Notes: generated by a model from the letters alone, not told the origin. Positions 32,473 to 54,330 are shown, counted from the first letter of the stretch. The stretch is 64,000 nucleotides of DNA from a bacterium (GCA_024226315.1 JAAELT010000565.1:10305-74304), one strand, 5' to 3'. Numbers and translations are program-made.

Positions 32473-33153
32473 GTGACCCACTACCCGTTCGTCCCCTTCG
32501 ACAGCCAGCGCTACGAGCCCGAGGAGATGTGGCGGCGCGCCGACGCTTTCCACGAGCTCATGGACCGGCGGCGGAGCATTCGCCATTTCTCGGGCGAGCC
32601 GGTGCCCCGCGAGCTGATCGAGACCGCCATCCGCACGGCCTCGACCGCGCCCTCCGGCGCCCACCGCCAGCCGTGGCGTTTCGTGGTGATCGGGGATCCC
32701 GCGATCAAGCACGAGATCCGCGTCGCTGCCGAGGCCGAGGAGCGCAAGACCTACGAGCAGCGGATGCCCGACGAGTGGCTCCAGGCGCTGGCGCCCCTGG
32801 GCGTGGACTGGCACAAGCCCTTCCTCGAGATCGTGCCGTGGATCGTGGTCGTCTTCGAGGAGCTGTACGGTTTCTACCCTGATGGTCGCAAGCGCAAGAA
32901 CTACTACGTGCGCGAGTCGGTGGGCATCGCCTGCGGCATGTTCATCACCGCGCTTCACCAGATGGGGCTAGCCACCCTGACCCACACCCCGAGCCCGATG
33001 GGCTTCCTGCGCGAGATCCTCGGCCGGCCGAAAAACGAGAAGCCCTACATCTTGTTTCCCGTCGGGTATCCGGCGCCGGAAGCCGAGGTGCCCGACCTCG
33101 AGCGCAAGACGCTCGACGAAGTGGCAATCTGGGATCCGCGACCGGAGCGCTAG
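32473..33153 (+). CDS. nitroreductase family protein (iodotyrosine-deiodinase-like subgroup)
   Basis: RRSIRHFSGEPVP and SGAHRQPWRFVVI motifs. 226 aa. Confidence 0.75.
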   Translation: MTHYPFVPFDSQRYEPEEMWRRADAFHELMDRRRSIRHFSGEPVPRELIETAIRTASTAPSGAHRQPWRFVVIGDPAIKHEIRVAAEAEERKTYEQRMPDEWLQALAPLGVDWHKPFLEIVPWIVVVFEELYGFYPDGRKRKNYYVRESVGIACGMFITALHQMGLATLTHTPSPMGFLREILGRPKNEKPYILFPVGYPAPEAEVPDLERKTLDEVAIWDPRPER

Positions 33154-36100
33154 TTCACCAGCCCGGATCCGACCTCGGCTTCGAGTGCCGCTCTCGCGGT
33201 CTCGAAGGCCGGCTCCAGGGCCGCCAGGGTCTCGGCCACTTCGTCCATGGCGCTCTCCTTGGCCAGGGTTTCGAGACTCTGGCACAAGGTCACCATCTTG
33301 GTTGCGCCGAGGAAGCCGCTCGACGACTTCAGCGAGTGTGCCGCTTCCTTGATCGCGTTGGCGTTGCCTCGCTCCACCTCGTTGCGCATGCTGGCGATCA
33401 GGTCGGGGGTCGAGCTCACGAACTCTTGAACCAAACGGTCGAGCAGGTCGTCGGAGCCGTCTCGCTGGAGCTCCCGGAGGCGGTCCAGCGACTCTCGATC
33501 CAGAGCTGACGATAGTGTCTCATCCAGCAGTGTCTCGTCCGACAGGGTCTCATCCGACGATGTTTCGGCCGAGGGCGCCGCGGCCGTCCGTGACTCGGCG
33601 GTCTCGGCGTCGCTCGCTTCCGGCACGCTCGAGTCGAGGGTGTCGGGCAGCCAGCTCGCCAGGCATTCGAAGAGCTGTTCCGGCCGGAAGGGCTTGCTCA
33701 GGTAGTCGTCCATGCCAGCGGCCAGGCATTTCTCGCGGTCACCCTTGAGCACGTTGGCGGTCATGGCGATGATCGGAATCCGTTGGCGGGGATCCCCGCC
33801 GTTGGGCGGCAGGCTGCTCTCACACTCCTTCTCACGGATCGCCGCCGTCACCTCGTAGCCATCCATCATCGGCATCTGGCAGTCCATCAGGATGAGGTCA
33901 TAGGGGCGGGTGGAAACCATGCGCAGGGCGGTAGGGCCGTCCGCCGCCGTCTCGCAGCTGCAGCCCACCTTGTTCAGCATGCACTGGACCACCTCCTGGT
34001 TGATCGGGTTGTCCTCGACGGTGAGGATCCGGGCCGCCCCCAGATCACGCTTCGGCACTGCCTCCTCGGGAGGCACTTCGACGAACTTGTGATCCGGCGT
34101 CGCCAGTCCGGCGATGCAGGCGTAGAGCTCCGGTTGGTGAACCGGTTTCGAGATACAGCGGACGATGCCGGAGTTCTCGAGGTCCTCCGGTGACAGCGGT
34201 GAAATCGTCAACATGACCACTGGCAGGTCTTTCAGGGTCGGTACGGCGCGGACCGCTTCGGCCAGCTCCAGACCGTCCATGCCGGCCATCTTCTGATCCA
34301 CCAGGGCGACGTCGAAAGGTGCCTTGTCCACGGAGGCGGAGAGCAGCATCTGGATCGCTTGCGGACCGTTCGCCGCGGCCTGCACTTTCAGCCCCCAATC
34401 CCGGAGCTGGAGTTGCAGGCAGGCGCGGCTGTTGGCGTTGTCGTCCACCACCAGCACTTGCGGCGCGTCCGAGCCGAAGTTGGGGTAACGGGTGACGCCG
34501 GGGCGTTTGGCTGCGGGCTCGAGCTGGACCGTGAACCAGAAAGACGAGCCTTCACCGGGGGCGCTTTCCACGCCCATCTGGCCGCCCATCAAGGTCACCA
34601 GCTCGGTCGAGATGGAGAGCCCCAGACCGGTGCCACCGTATTTGCGGGTGGTGGAGCCGTCCGCCTGGTGGAAGGCCTCGAAGATCCGATCCCGAGCCTT
34701 GGCATCGAGTCCGATGCCAGTATCGCGGACCTCGAACCTGAGCCCTGCCGGGCCCTCGGCCGAGGCCTTCACTTCCACCTCGCCGCGCTCGGTGAACTTG
34801 ATGGCGTTGGAGATCAGGTTGGAGAGGATCTGCCGCAGCCGGATCGGGTCGCCGCGCAAGGCGGTGCGGGTGTCGCCCGAGATGCTGTAAAGGAGCTCCA
34901 GGCTCTTCTCGTGGCAGGGCTCCGCGAACAGCTCCGCAACCTCCTGGATCAGGCCCCTTAGGCTGAAGTCGACGATATCGAGCTCGAGCTTGCCGGCCTC
35001 GATCTTGGAGAAGTCGAGGATGTCGTTCAGCAGGTCCAGCAGGTTGCGGGCCGACTGGCGCGCGGTGTGGGCGAACTTGTGCTGCCGTTCGGAGAGCTCG
35101 TCGTCGAGCAGCAGCTCGATCATGCCGAGCAGCCCGTTCATCGGCGTGCGGATCTCGTGGCTCATGTTGGCCAGGAACTGCGACTTGGCGCGGCTGGCGC
35201 TCTCGGCGCTCTCTTTCGCCTCTTTAAGCAGCTCGACTTCGGTGATGTCGGTGCCGGAGCTCAGTGTCCCGGCCATTGTGCCCTCGTCCGAAGGCAGGCG
35301 GGTGGTATGCCATTCGATGATCCGGATGTCCCATTTGTGGGTCAGAACGGAGTACTTGTAGGCGTTCTCGAAATCGCCGCGCTCGATCCTCGCCTTCACC
35401 GCCCCGGAATCCTTCTCCGTGACGAACTCGTGGTACCAGCTCTTGCCGACGATCTCCTCTTCCGCGTAGCCGAGCACTTCGCAGCCCTTCTGGTTGATCA
35501 GCGAGACGACGCCCCGGTGATCCAGGACCACCATGATCACGCCGGCGACGTCGAAGTACGACTGGGCTTTCTGCTTCGCCTGCTCCAGGGCCTCTTCCTT
35601 GGCCTGGCGCTGGCTGATTTCTTCCTGCAGCTCGGCGTTGGCCCGCGCCAGCTCGGCAGCCCGCTGGCGTTTCTTGGCCTGGGCGCTGGTGAACACCAGC
35701 ACGGCGCAAGCCAGCGCCAGGGAGTAGAGGCTGTACGCCCACCAGGTCTTCCACGGCGGCGGCTCGACGCGGATCGCGAGCGCCGCTCCCTGCTCGTTCC
35801 AGACGCCGTCGTTGTTCGACGCCTTGACGCGGAAGGTGTAGTCGCCCGGCGCCAGGTTGGTGTAGGTGGCACGCCGCAGCTTGCCGGAGTCCACCCAGTC
35901 GCGGTCGAAGCCTTCGAGCTTGTGGAGATAGCGGTTCTTTTCCGGTGCCGTGAAGTCCAGCGCCGCGAACTCGAAGGCCACCACGTAGTCCTGGTGATCG
36001 AGGGTCAGATGGTTGACCTCCGACAGCGGCCGGCCGAGATCGATGGCGTCGTTGAACTTGAGGAACTCGGTCAGCATGACCGGCGGCACGTGGGTGTTCT

Positions 36101-53158: not shown

Positions 53159-53575
53159 TCAGCCTGTCGAGCGGATGCCGACTTCCCGATCCGCGTAGAT
53201 CCGGGTGACGGCTTCGTGCTGTTCGAGGGCGGCGATCTGGGCCGGCGTCAGCCGGGCGCCGACGGCGTTGATGATCCGCAGCCGGTGGGTGATCGTGCCG
53301 CCGACCTCTTCGACCGCCGCCACCACTGCCTCGAGCTCGCGGCCCTGGACGATCATCGCGGAGACCGAGTCCTCGGCGGCCGGCTCCACGATGGCAGTTT
53401 CTTCGGGCACGGCTTCGGGCACGGCGTCAGCCGCGCTCTTCGGCGTCGAGGAGCACGACATCAGAACCGAAGCGACGGCGACGGTGAATACCAGGTTGGC
53501 GCACCAATGGAATCTCTCGAGCATGGCATTGTCCCTGTACTCGTCGCGCGGCATTCGCGCCTCCGAGCCGATCAA
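53159..53575 (-). CDS. stand-alone peptidase-inhibitor I9 (subtilase propeptide-like) protein, probable lipoprotein
   Basis: AMIVQGRELEAVVAAVEEVGGTITHRLRIINAVGARLTPAQIAALEQHEAVTRIYADREV aligns with the propeptides of the class B subtilases. Signal has VLMSC. The maximal ORF starts at a TTG overlapping the regulator stop. The ATG at 53524 (MLERFHWCANLVF) is the more likely start. Confidence 0.7.
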   Translation of the reverse strand: MIGSEARMPRDEYRDNAMLERFHWCANLVFTVAVASVLMSCSSTPKSAADAVPEAVPEETAIVEPAAEDSVSAMIVQGRELEAVVAAVEEVGGTITHRLRIINAVGARLTPAQIAALEQHEAVTRIYADREVGIRSTG

Positions 53576-54330
53576 GCTGCTGAGGTGAGCTGCATACGGG
53601 GAACGCTGGATTCGAGGACCAGGCCGGATCGGTAACCGACGCCCCGGACGGTGAGGATCAGCTTGGGATTTGCCGGATCATCTTCCAGCTTCTCGCGCAG
53701 GTGCCTGACGTGGACGTCGATCGTTCGCTCGACCGAATAGTGTCCCGGGCCCCAGGCCGCGTCCATGATCTGGCCTCGGCTCAGCACTCGGCCCTGGGCT
53801 TGCGCCAGGGCCTCGAGCACGCCGAACTCGCGCAGCGTCAGGTCGATGGGCTCGCCGTGCTTGAAGACCTCGTGACGATTCGAGTCGATCACGAGCGGAC
53901 CCAGTTTGAGGCCTTCGTACTCGTCCTCGGCGGAGGGTCGGCCGCGGCGCAGCACGGCCTTGACGCGGGCGGTGAGCTCCTGCGGGCTGAAGGGCTTGGT
54001 GACGTAGTCGTCGGCCCCCCAATTGAGCGCCAGCACCTTGACGCTTTCGGCGCGGGTGGCCGAGAGCATGATCACCGGGATGTCCAGATCCTTGCGTACC
54101 CACTTGAGCAGGCCGAGGCCGTCTTCCGGCAGGCCGGGGGCCGAGAAGTCGCGCCCCAGCGAGATGTCGAGGATCATCGCCTCGGGTCTTGGGTCGAGCC
54201 CCAGGCGCTGAACGGCCTCCAGCACGCTGGCGGCGGTGCGCACGGAGAAGCGCTCCTCCTTGAGGTCACACCTCACCTGATCGAGCACGTTCCTGTCGTC
54301 GTCGACTACCAGAATCTCTTGCTGACTCAT
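53572..54330 (-). CDS. OmpR/PhoB-family response regulator (REC plus winged helix)
   Basis: Start set to the ATG at 54330 (MSQQEILVVDDD), with GGGGGTGA upstream. Phospho-acceptor context is MILDISLG. The wHTH region reads LTLREFGVLEALAQAQGRVLSRGQIMD...TIDVHVRHLREKLE...ILTVRGVGY. Confidence 0.9.
   Translation of the reverse strand: MSQQEILVVDDDRNVLDQVRCDLKEERFSVRTAASVLEAVQRLGLDPRPEAMILDISLGRDFSAPGLPEDGLGLLKWVRKDLDIPVIMLSATRAESVKVLALNWGADDYVTKPFSPQELTARVKAVLRRGRPSAEDEYEGLKLGPLVIDSNRHEVFKHGEPIDLTLREFGVLEALAQAQGRVLSRGQIMDAAWGPGHYSVERTIDVHVRHLREKLEDDPANPKLILTVRGVGYRSGLVLESSVPRMQLTSAA

Follow-up and report, generated by a model that had tools for sequence, protein, structure and literature searches.

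Seven genes for subtilases of family S8 lie side by side in a 64-kb stretch of bacterial DNA (GCA_024226315.1, JAAELT010000565.1:10305-74304; hereafter the window, numbered from its first letter), with a gene for an OmpR/PhoB-family response regulator at one end of the row and a gene for a giant hybrid sensor kinase at the other. This raises the question whether proteases, kinase and regulator belong to one regulatory system and what the kinase may perceive. We propose, with a probability of about 0.6, that the subtilases form a secreted or lipid-anchored regulon under the control of a phosphorelay from the kinase, with its periplasmic beta-propellers, to the OmpR-type regulator. The module at its core would be a subtilase with a disordered, Trp-rich hexapeptide tail together with a directly adjoining membrane sensor that carries a double beta-propeller and a Y_Y_Y domain of the hybrid two-component system (HTCS) type. 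Within the HisKA-HATPase-REC-REC-Hpt part of the kinase, the phosphoryl group would travel to the Hpt domain and from there to the regulator, which would bind CTTAA-N6-CTTAA repeats upstream of six protease transcription units and probably also CKTAA-N7-CGTAA sites at its own gene and at the kinase gene, resulting in autoregulation. The proposal builds on the observed architecture, motif enrichment and synteny, from which we infer phosphotransfer, DNA binding and the nature of the ligand.

Kinase, regulator and candidate operators

A list of open reading frames (ORFs) and a Pfam scan placed the entire array on the minus strand (33150-54375). In transcriptional order, the regulator gene (53572..54375, with the likely ATG at 54330) is followed by a gene for a stand-alone, lipoprotein-type I9 propeptide (53159..53575), the start of which overlaps the stop codon of the regulator gene, by the seven subtilase genes and by the kinase gene (33150..38237). 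Gene content, order and strand had all been listed in this way in the initial annotation of the locus, and the domains named there were borne out by Pfam.

In the kinase (1695 amino acids, aa), a signal peptide, approximately 14 Reg_prop blades (198 bits), a Y_Y_Y domain (66 bits) and a transmembrane segment precede PAS, HisKA, HATPase_c, two REC domains and a C-terminal Hpt; no helix-turn-helix domain was among the 15 Pfam matches. The periplasmic part has the double propeller and Y_Y_Y domain of the HTCS type and is homologous over its full length to the periplasmic domain of the Bacteroides HTCS BT4663 (PDB 4a2l, E=7e-117; 3v9f, E=3e-103). The presence of HisKA, HATPase_c, REC and Hpt in one protein corresponds to the tripartite or hybrid layout of ArcB, TorS and BarA. 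These three were also the best matches in NCBIfam, but scores far under the equivalog cut-offs (TorS 468 vs. 676 bits, BarA 452 vs. 890, ArcB 386 vs. 838) argue against orthology to a named member. An Hpt-ended kinase that feeds an OmpR-family regulator is the established layout of the ArcB-ArcA and TorS-TorR systems. The locus shares with these systems the HisKA-HATPase-REC-Hpt order, the OmpR-family partner and phased direct repeats, and differs from them by its two REC domains, the propeller input and other target genes. The regulator itself is assigned to the OmpR/PhoB family by its Response_reg (PF00072, 4e-19) and Trans_reg_C domains (PF00486, 5e-27), its translation contains the acceptor Asp in MILDISLG and the Lys in TKPF, and its best NCBIfam matches, YycF, MtrA and PhoB, were all under the equivalog cut-offs.

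With at most one mismatch, CTTAA-N6-CTTAA occurs eight times at six sites in the window, where 0.09 matches were expected, and every site lies on the minus strand upstream of S8 genes. Located by motif scan and promoter alignment, the boxes precede the genes for the enzymes of 448 aa (box 53138..53153, gene 51684..53030), 1116 aa (box 51549..51564 with one mismatch, gene 48075..51425) and 459 aa (box 47944..47959, gene 46446..47825), a tail-only relic together with the gene for the 709-aa enzyme (box 46418..46433, gene 44052..46181, ORF to 46283), the pair of genes for the 497-aa and 551-aa enzymes (box 43978..43993 with one mismatch, genes 42402..43895 and 40719..42374) and the gene for the 724-aa enzyme (box 40699..40714, gene 38440..40614, ORF to 40674). 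Five boxes are located 83-139 bp before a start codon, and the sixth stands 237-252 bp ahead of the 709-aa gene, from which the relic separates it. The six promoter regions can be aligned over approximately 60 bp, with invariant TTAA cores, variable spacers and a downstream CAAAG-N4-CTTCAG common to all. As a direct repeat with 11-bp phasing, the box has a familiar form: dimers of OmpR/PhoB-family regulators recognise direct repeats phased at 11 bp, e.g. the PhoB boxes. The extended module CTTAA-N6-CTTAA...CAAAG-N4-CTTCAG was also detected 124-144 bp upstream of two S8 genes (0.01 expected) in a related organism with 61-71% protein identity (L002). Unrelated genes separate the protease genes there, and retention of the module despite this separation speaks in favour of selection on the module and against co-duplication as the sole explanation. 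The box was absent from 82 more distant loci. Judged by these upstream regions, the proteases look co-regulated, in line with the common control of the protease battery that had been postulated earlier: a candidate operator stands before six transcription units with protease genes, and the rest of the window is free of it.

Of the related motif CKTAA-N7-CGTAA, for which 0 matches were expected, the window contains three: two precede the regulator gene and one the kinase gene. Two CTTAA-N7-CGTAA sites, which a tandem repeat finder reported as a 28-bp tandem unit, are situated upstream of the regulator gene in a short divergent region (54400..54444, minus strand), and a CGTAA-N7-CGTAA site lies upstream of the kinase gene (38399..38415, minus strand). 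Both CTTAA-N7-CGTAA sites overlap the start region of a divergent mannose-1-phosphate guanylyltransferase gene and could affect that gene too.

Intergenic gaps in the array measure 100-260 bp, except for the 27 bp between the 497-aa and 551-aa genes, which are therefore probably co-transcribed. Terminator-like hairpins are present on the minus strand 3' of the 448-aa gene (51601..51622; a 9-bp stem with 8 GC pairs, then a T run) and, nearly identical, 3' of the 1116-aa gene (47992..48013). Together with the wide gaps they show that several transcription units are present instead of one operon. Approximately 50 bp, hairpin included, are common to the 3' flanks of these two genes, one of class A and the other of class B as defined below (TTCTCCTCTTCCGCCGCCGGCA...GGCGGCTTTT; compared in 51590-51660 and 47985-48050), and the 1116-aa gene has, between its box and its start, a perfect 15-bp tandem duplication (51470-51499; unit ACGAAACACTGCCAA on the plus strand, TTGGCAGTGTTTCGT on the gene strand). 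Sigma-54 promoters were not enriched upstream of the proteases (3 matches vs. 8 expected, none in the locus), and no RNA elements such as cyclic di-GMP riboswitches were found.

Tailed subtilases and propeller sensors across phyla

All seven proteases end in 3-9 tandem 18-bp units coding for G-Y-L-W-[ST]-x, followed by L-[TA]-E-P-x-x-I-N-x-W-V-x-Q-E. The repeats are located at 51733-51804 (448 aa), 48128-48311 (1116 aa), 46490-46619 (459 aa), 44123-44277 (709 aa), 42451-42616 (497 aa), 40764-40921 (551 aa) and 38485-38632 (724 aa). The tail had previously been noted as a marker of protease classes, and it is indeed present, but its conserved repeat nature, the most unusual feature of the locus, was missed. 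A homolog search returned 1,834 S8 proteins with 50-60% identity from metagenomes and metagenome-assembled genomes (MAGs), which bear no other names than 'S8 family peptidase' or 'AprX'. Of the best 120 homologs, nearly all have the same tail, with a median of seven repeats of the consensus G-[YF]-[LIVM]-W-[SNT]-[DNQ] in which Trp is invariant, and 112 of these 120 terminate in W[VIA]xx[EQ]. The tail is thus an uncatalogued, highly conserved feature of well over a thousand S8 homologs. When the tail was scanned separately at E<=10, no NCBIfam model matched and Pfam yielded only WXXGXW with 16.7 bits, below the 18-bit cut-off; Hexapep/LbH, RTX and exosortase or sortase CTERM models did not cover it, and the sequence shows no hydrophobic helix at the C-terminus.

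In an AlphaFold2 (AF2) model of the 448-aa protease, the predicted local distance difference test (pLDDT) exceeded 90 in the catalytic domain and fell below 50 in the tail, which is therefore predicted to be disordered on its own. A left-handed beta-helix, considered for the hexapeptide repeats, was rejected on account of this low pLDDT and the missing Hexapep match.

Tail and S8 domain are tightly associated. Among the tailed ORFs in 84 loci and the window, 140 of 146 encode S8 proteins and the other six are fragments or relics. A search of representatives with the C-terminal 110 aa gave 194 matches, in which the true tail carriers were all S8 proteins or short fragments; the non-S8 matches were discarded as unrelated collagen-like repeats, and no non-S8 tail carrier was found in this library-wide search. 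A word-index search with the tail only returned a single fragment, for which the handling of low-complexity sequence was probably responsible.

Several variants of the tail were encountered. Another S8 type, more divergent with 37-47% identity, shares the Y/F-L-W repeats and ends in ...L[NVA]DD, not in WVxQE (L020, L023, L049, L086 15428-17134, L015 2-508); in L020, L023 and L049 it is the S8 gene nearest to the sensor. In one S8 relative of 1006 aa (P0311), the tail has a period of approximately 12 residues, with GDVENQGLLWTY repeated more than 25 times and the end KWVSQE, and ARYLWD/KYLWDE repeats occur near the N-terminus. The kinase in turn contains a signature strand G-x-L-W-[VIL]-G-T in 13 of its Reg_prop blades (33150-38237), two of which read GYLWFGT and GYLWLSS, next to G-Y-L-W-S-T in the tail unit. 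Strands that contain Trp may resemble one another by chance, or the likeness may hint at mimicry between strands of tail and propeller.

Relatives of the proteases were present in at least 578 genome stretches in a scan of one genome per species, with records naming Gammaproteobacteria (Woeseiaceae, Thiocystis, Thalassomonas, Aestuariibacter), Steroidobacteraceae, Acidobacteriota/Thermoanaerobaculia, Chloroflexota and Gemmatimonadota. For synteny, 83-84 loci were fetched and searched with parts of the window proteins, and 69 of them had enough sequence to be counted. A full-length homolog of the 800-aa periplasmic domain of the kinase (36-61% identity) was encoded on the same strand at most 2.5 kb downstream of a tailed S8 gene in 29 of the 69 loci; a sensor homolog lay within 700 bp of a tailed S8 gene in 20 of 69, and anywhere in the flank in 40 of 83. 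In the reciprocal direction, sensor homologs with 53-54% identity had tailed S8 neighbours in two of two cases, and sensor homologs with a SpoIIE output in none of three. Two of these three SpoIIE-output propeller sensors (neighbourhoods of P0137 and P0221; L088 4080-5072) adjoin M28/M1-type metallopeptidases, one of which bears PDZ domains and overlaps the sensor gene by 4 bp, and propeller sensors may pair with peptidases more generally.

The output end of the neighbouring sensors varies and can be a GGDEF domain (proteins of approximately 1100 aa), a hybrid kinase, kinase-REC, a PAS-GAF-sigma-54 activator or nothing; GGDEF and REC-PAS-GGDEF-EAL proteins are the commonest outputs elsewhere. 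Hybrid-kinase sensors in other loci usually have a REC-PAS-GGDEF-EAL protein next to them (L006, L008, L013, L021, L036, L086), and in L086 a relay of propeller-kinase-REC, REC-Hpt and REC-PAS-GGDEF-EAL proteins adjoins two tailed S8 genes. A kinase of the same architecture adjoins tailed S8 genes in L007 and L011, the closest relatives, and tandem S8 arrays recur with eight genes in L015, seven in L039 and six in L013. The association of kinase and protease is ancient, with an output that is not fixed. The expectation from the initial annotation that regulator, proteases and kinase would be linked in related genomes was confirmed across phyla for kinase and proteases, but not for the regulator, which is not near the arrays of the closest relatives.

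Several observations weigh against a single relay-controlled regulon. In the nearest relatives, the 4-10 kb around the arrays contain no OmpR-type regulator, which confines the evidence for the pairing of regulator and kinase to their position and the shared motif. Tailed S8 genes occur without a nearby sensor in 33 of the 69 loci. Part of the conservation of the boxes could come from promoters that were duplicated along with their genes, and the motif on the side of the regulator, situated in the divergent region shared with the mannose-1-phosphate guanylyltransferase gene, might serve the latter. Finally, the array, interrupted by two terminator-like hairpins, is not a single transcript.

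Every component of the locus comes from a known family and the layout of the relay is classical. Apparently undescribed are the hexapeptide tail, the restriction of this tail to a single S8 clade and the cross-phylum pairing of this clade with a HTCS-type sensor of interchangeable outputs: the literature searched yielded no account of either the tail or the protease-sensor pairing, and the curated libraries Pfam and NCBIfam contain no model of the tail. The composition of the locus had initially been treated as unique, but the protease-propeller pair is widespread, with enzymes of cyclic di-GMP turnover as its usual output; the window would add to this pair an expanded, OmpR-wired variant with a readable candidate operator. 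The carriers of the module are bacteria of the kinds that have been reported to degrade protein in sediments and on particles, e.g. the Woeseiaceae (PMC12175321). A conserved protease-sensor pair would represent the protein-degradation counterpart of polysaccharide utilisation loci, and the window, in which one kinase and one regulator face seven targets with a clear candidate operator, is an unusually clean test bed.

Possible cues and competing explanations

By analogy with polysaccharide utilisation loci, the input may be a periplasmic cue that is generated by or carried on the proteases, either their peptide products or the tail itself, whereby protease output would be tuned to proteolytic activity or substrate. 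The tailed protease is the constant partner of the sensor whatever the output, which favours such a cue. HTCS sensors that read the products of neighbouring enzymes offer a parallel for protease sensing: as in BT4663, the homologous sensor is followed by a transmembrane segment, kinase and REC, and the gene adjoins those of secreted hydrolases that are presumably monitored. In contrast to the Bacteroides systems, no AraC-type DNA-binding domain is fused to the kinase, and Hpt and a separate OmpR-type regulator form the end of the relay, a position taken in relatives by GGDEF or sigma-54 modules. The neighbours are proteases instead of glycoside hydrolases or SusC/D, with only proteases and regulators in the locus, and the hosts are Acidobacteriota and Gammaproteobacteria-like bacteria, not Bacteroidota.

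That the Trp-rich tail itself is the ligand of the neighbouring propeller, either intact by docking of the protease or after self-cleavage to G-Y-L-W-S-x hexapeptides or the INxWVxQE end-peptide, is a tentative and rather unlikely extension of this idea. The disordered tail and its conserved free C-terminus are compatible with it, Tyr, Leu and Trp in the tail fit the P1 preferences of subtilisins, and a variable copy number would be expected if the tail were a multivalent ligand or a peptide precursor. Tandem copies of a short peptide in variable number, in conjunction with a subtilisin-family protease, are also known from the yeast alpha-factor precursor with Kex2 and from the cyanobactin precursor PatE with PatA and PatG. 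Unlike in these systems, the repeats here are within the protease itself, and neither spacer or cleavage motifs nor modifying enzymes are recognisable, so that release of peptides from the tail is pure conjecture. If the tail were the ligand, the protease would carry a built-in, multi-copy signalling peptide in a peptide-based activity-reporting or quorum-like circuit feeding cyclic di-GMP or transcription in Gram-negative and other environmental bacteria.

Alternatively, the propeller might sense a glycan or matrix fragment with the aromatic tail as the anchor of the proteases on a polysaccharide or cell-surface matrix, in which case the proteases would be outputs only, in a remodelling of the biofilm matrix linked to cyclic di-GMP or transcription. 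All solved relatives of the sensor bind oligosaccharides, including BT4663, and carbohydrate-binding surfaces typically show regularly spaced aromatic residues. The homology to BT4663, the GGDEF and REC-PAS-GGDEF-EAL proteins as the commonest outputs elsewhere, the two DNRLRE/CBM96 domains of carbohydrate-binding type on the 1116-aa paralog and the glycosyltransferase and glycoside hydrolase family 26 (GH26) genes beside the protease in L005 point in the same direction. However, genes for glycan degradation or transport are absent from the locus and from most related loci, the protease is the constant neighbour of the sensor regardless of its output domain, and the tail is predicted to be disordered instead of forming a folded binding module. 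We consider recognition of matrix glycans unlikely. Still less probable, in our view, is that the tail has no direct relation to the sensor and acts as a C-terminal export or sorting signal or as an aqualysin-like C-terminal propeptide. Some subtilases, such as aqualysin I, need C-terminal prosequences for secretion, and the strictly terminal position and high conservation of INxWVxQE (112 of 120 ends, as given above) would suit such a role. Yet there is no hydrophobic anchor of the sortase or exosortase kind, N-terminal Sec or lipoprotein signals are present, unlike in type I secretion substrates, the family spans lineages with different envelopes, no dedicated secretion genes are conserved alongside the tailed proteases, and the synteny with the sensor would be left unexplained.

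The remaining alternative concerns the wiring and not the cue: kinase and regulator may not be partners, with the kinase acting on a regulator encoded elsewhere (e.g. a REC-GGDEF-EAL protein), while the OmpR-type protein serves another kinase or another factor binds the boxes. The absence of the regulator beside related arrays is in keeping with this arrangement, as is the REC-PAS-GGDEF-EAL neighbour of hybrid kinases in the six loci named above, and the N6 spacing of the protease boxes is not identical to the N7 spacing of the sites at the regulator and kinase genes. On the other hand, a scan of genes flanking the locus on both sides revealed no REC-GGDEF-EAL or other regulator gene, a motif with no further occurrence in the window connects regulator and kinase genes, and the regulator gene heads the very array that it is supposed to control. 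Separate partners for kinase and regulator appear improbable, and we prefer the phosphorelay from the propeller kinase to the OmpR-type regulator.

Protease classes, propeptides and flanking features

None of the seven proteases deviates at Asp61, His102, Ser294 or the oxyanion Asn202, and each matched PF00082 (E=1e-48 to 1e-53; 5.6e-52 for the 448-aa enzyme), so that the ordered triad and Asn of family S8 are present throughout and the intact triads described in the initial annotation were confirmed. The same applies to its two alternating classes: members of one class are 64-70% identical and members of different classes 56-62%, and they follow one another as A B A (relic) B A B A, with the 1116-aa, 709-aa and 551-aa enzymes in class B. 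Alternation of the two clades points to repeated duplication of an A-B gene pair. The array is a lineage-specific expansion of a widespread two-part module, in which the A/B pair was duplicated into seven genes and relics.

The fold of the catalytic domain matches subtilisins and Tk-SP from Thermococcus kodakarensis (PDB 3afg/9ues), the closest solved structure with 39% identity. Bacterial S8 peptidases annotated as 'AprX' are likewise among the nearest known proteins. Tk-SP also has an N-terminal I9-type propeptide and a C-terminal extension. The latter is a folded beta-jelly roll in Tk-SP, in contrast to the disordered G-Y-L-W-S-x repeats and INxWVxQE end of the window proteases. Tk-SP is reported to fold independently of its propeptide, which makes propeptide-less class A enzymes plausible.

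The class B enzymes and the free I9 protein have probable lipoprotein-type signals (ISSC, FLSC, FLSC and LMSC, read from the N-termini) that fit a relaxed PROSITE-type lipobox pattern; the Cys in the class B signal had been noted before, and its interpretation is corrected here to a probable lipoprotein-type signal (FLSC, ISSC, LMSC). In the 1116-aa enzyme, this signal is followed by a putative I9 propeptide; no Pfam I9 match was reported for the class B N-termini at E<=0.01. Over signal peptide and propeptide, the free I9 protein and the 551-aa paralog share 53% identity, and the free protein scored 18.7 bits against Pfam I9 (PF05922), with a gathering cut-off of 21.2. Its AF2 model (pLDDT 96-98 in residues 72-128) has the beta-alpha-beta-beta-alpha-beta fold of prosegments. 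The best PDB matches were the prosegments of subtilisin, Tk-subtilisin and cucumisin (TM-score to target 0.72-0.82, root-mean-square deviation 1.6-2.1 A for the three best, probability 1.00), with 0.82 and 1.6 A for the subtilisin prosegment 3cnq_P. Most likely, the free I9 lipoprotein would be a trans-acting inhibitor or chaperone for the propeptide-less class A enzymes; alternatively, it may be the leftover of a deleted class B gene. Apparent combinations of a free I9 protein with a propeptide-less S8 in L039, L052 and L068 were rejected, as they are frameshift-split genes in MAGs and not independent genes.

The 724-aa protease, assigned to class A by its tail, lacks an I9 propeptide as stated in the initial annotation, which overlooked a 270-aa N-terminal extension of two repeats. 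Two copies of a domain of approximately 120 aa, without Pfam match, occupy residues ~45-290 (39800-40560), where a propeptide would be. An insert common to the 709-aa and 1116-aa enzymes, for which a weak 'choice-of-anchor J' match was the only one, separates the propeptide from the catalytic domain, and the 1116-aa enzyme additionally bears the two DNRLRE/CBM96 domains.

The relic between the 459-aa and 709-aa genes was correctly recognised earlier but is longer than the 30 codons given then: the ORF of 49 codons (46208..46357, minus strand) comprises one repeat and the conserved C-terminus and its translation ends in MWNSGYLWSTALTEQLAINAWVPPA. Similar tail-only mini-ORFs occur elsewhere (L016 7074-7202; P0375, 43 aa; P0308, 57 aa), one of them immediately before the first S8 gene of Thiocystis violacea, and could be recombination scars, gene-call fragments or expressed peptides.

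The array is flanked by unrelated housekeeping genes. The mannose-1-phosphate guanylyltransferase gene (54433-55566, plus strand) starts approximately 58 bp from the longest ORF of the regulator on the opposite strand. An exact look-up retrieved no identical sequence for the kinase, while a protein identical to the 497-aa protease (P0002) is on record from NCBI assembly GCA_024449835.1. The named relatives nearest to the locus are MAGs of Acidobacteriota/Thermoanaerobaculia, which hints at this lineage as the possible source, and near-identical or close public sequences were present only in L001 (from this assembly) and L002 (GCA_024449935.1), both from very large assemblies with millions of contigs.

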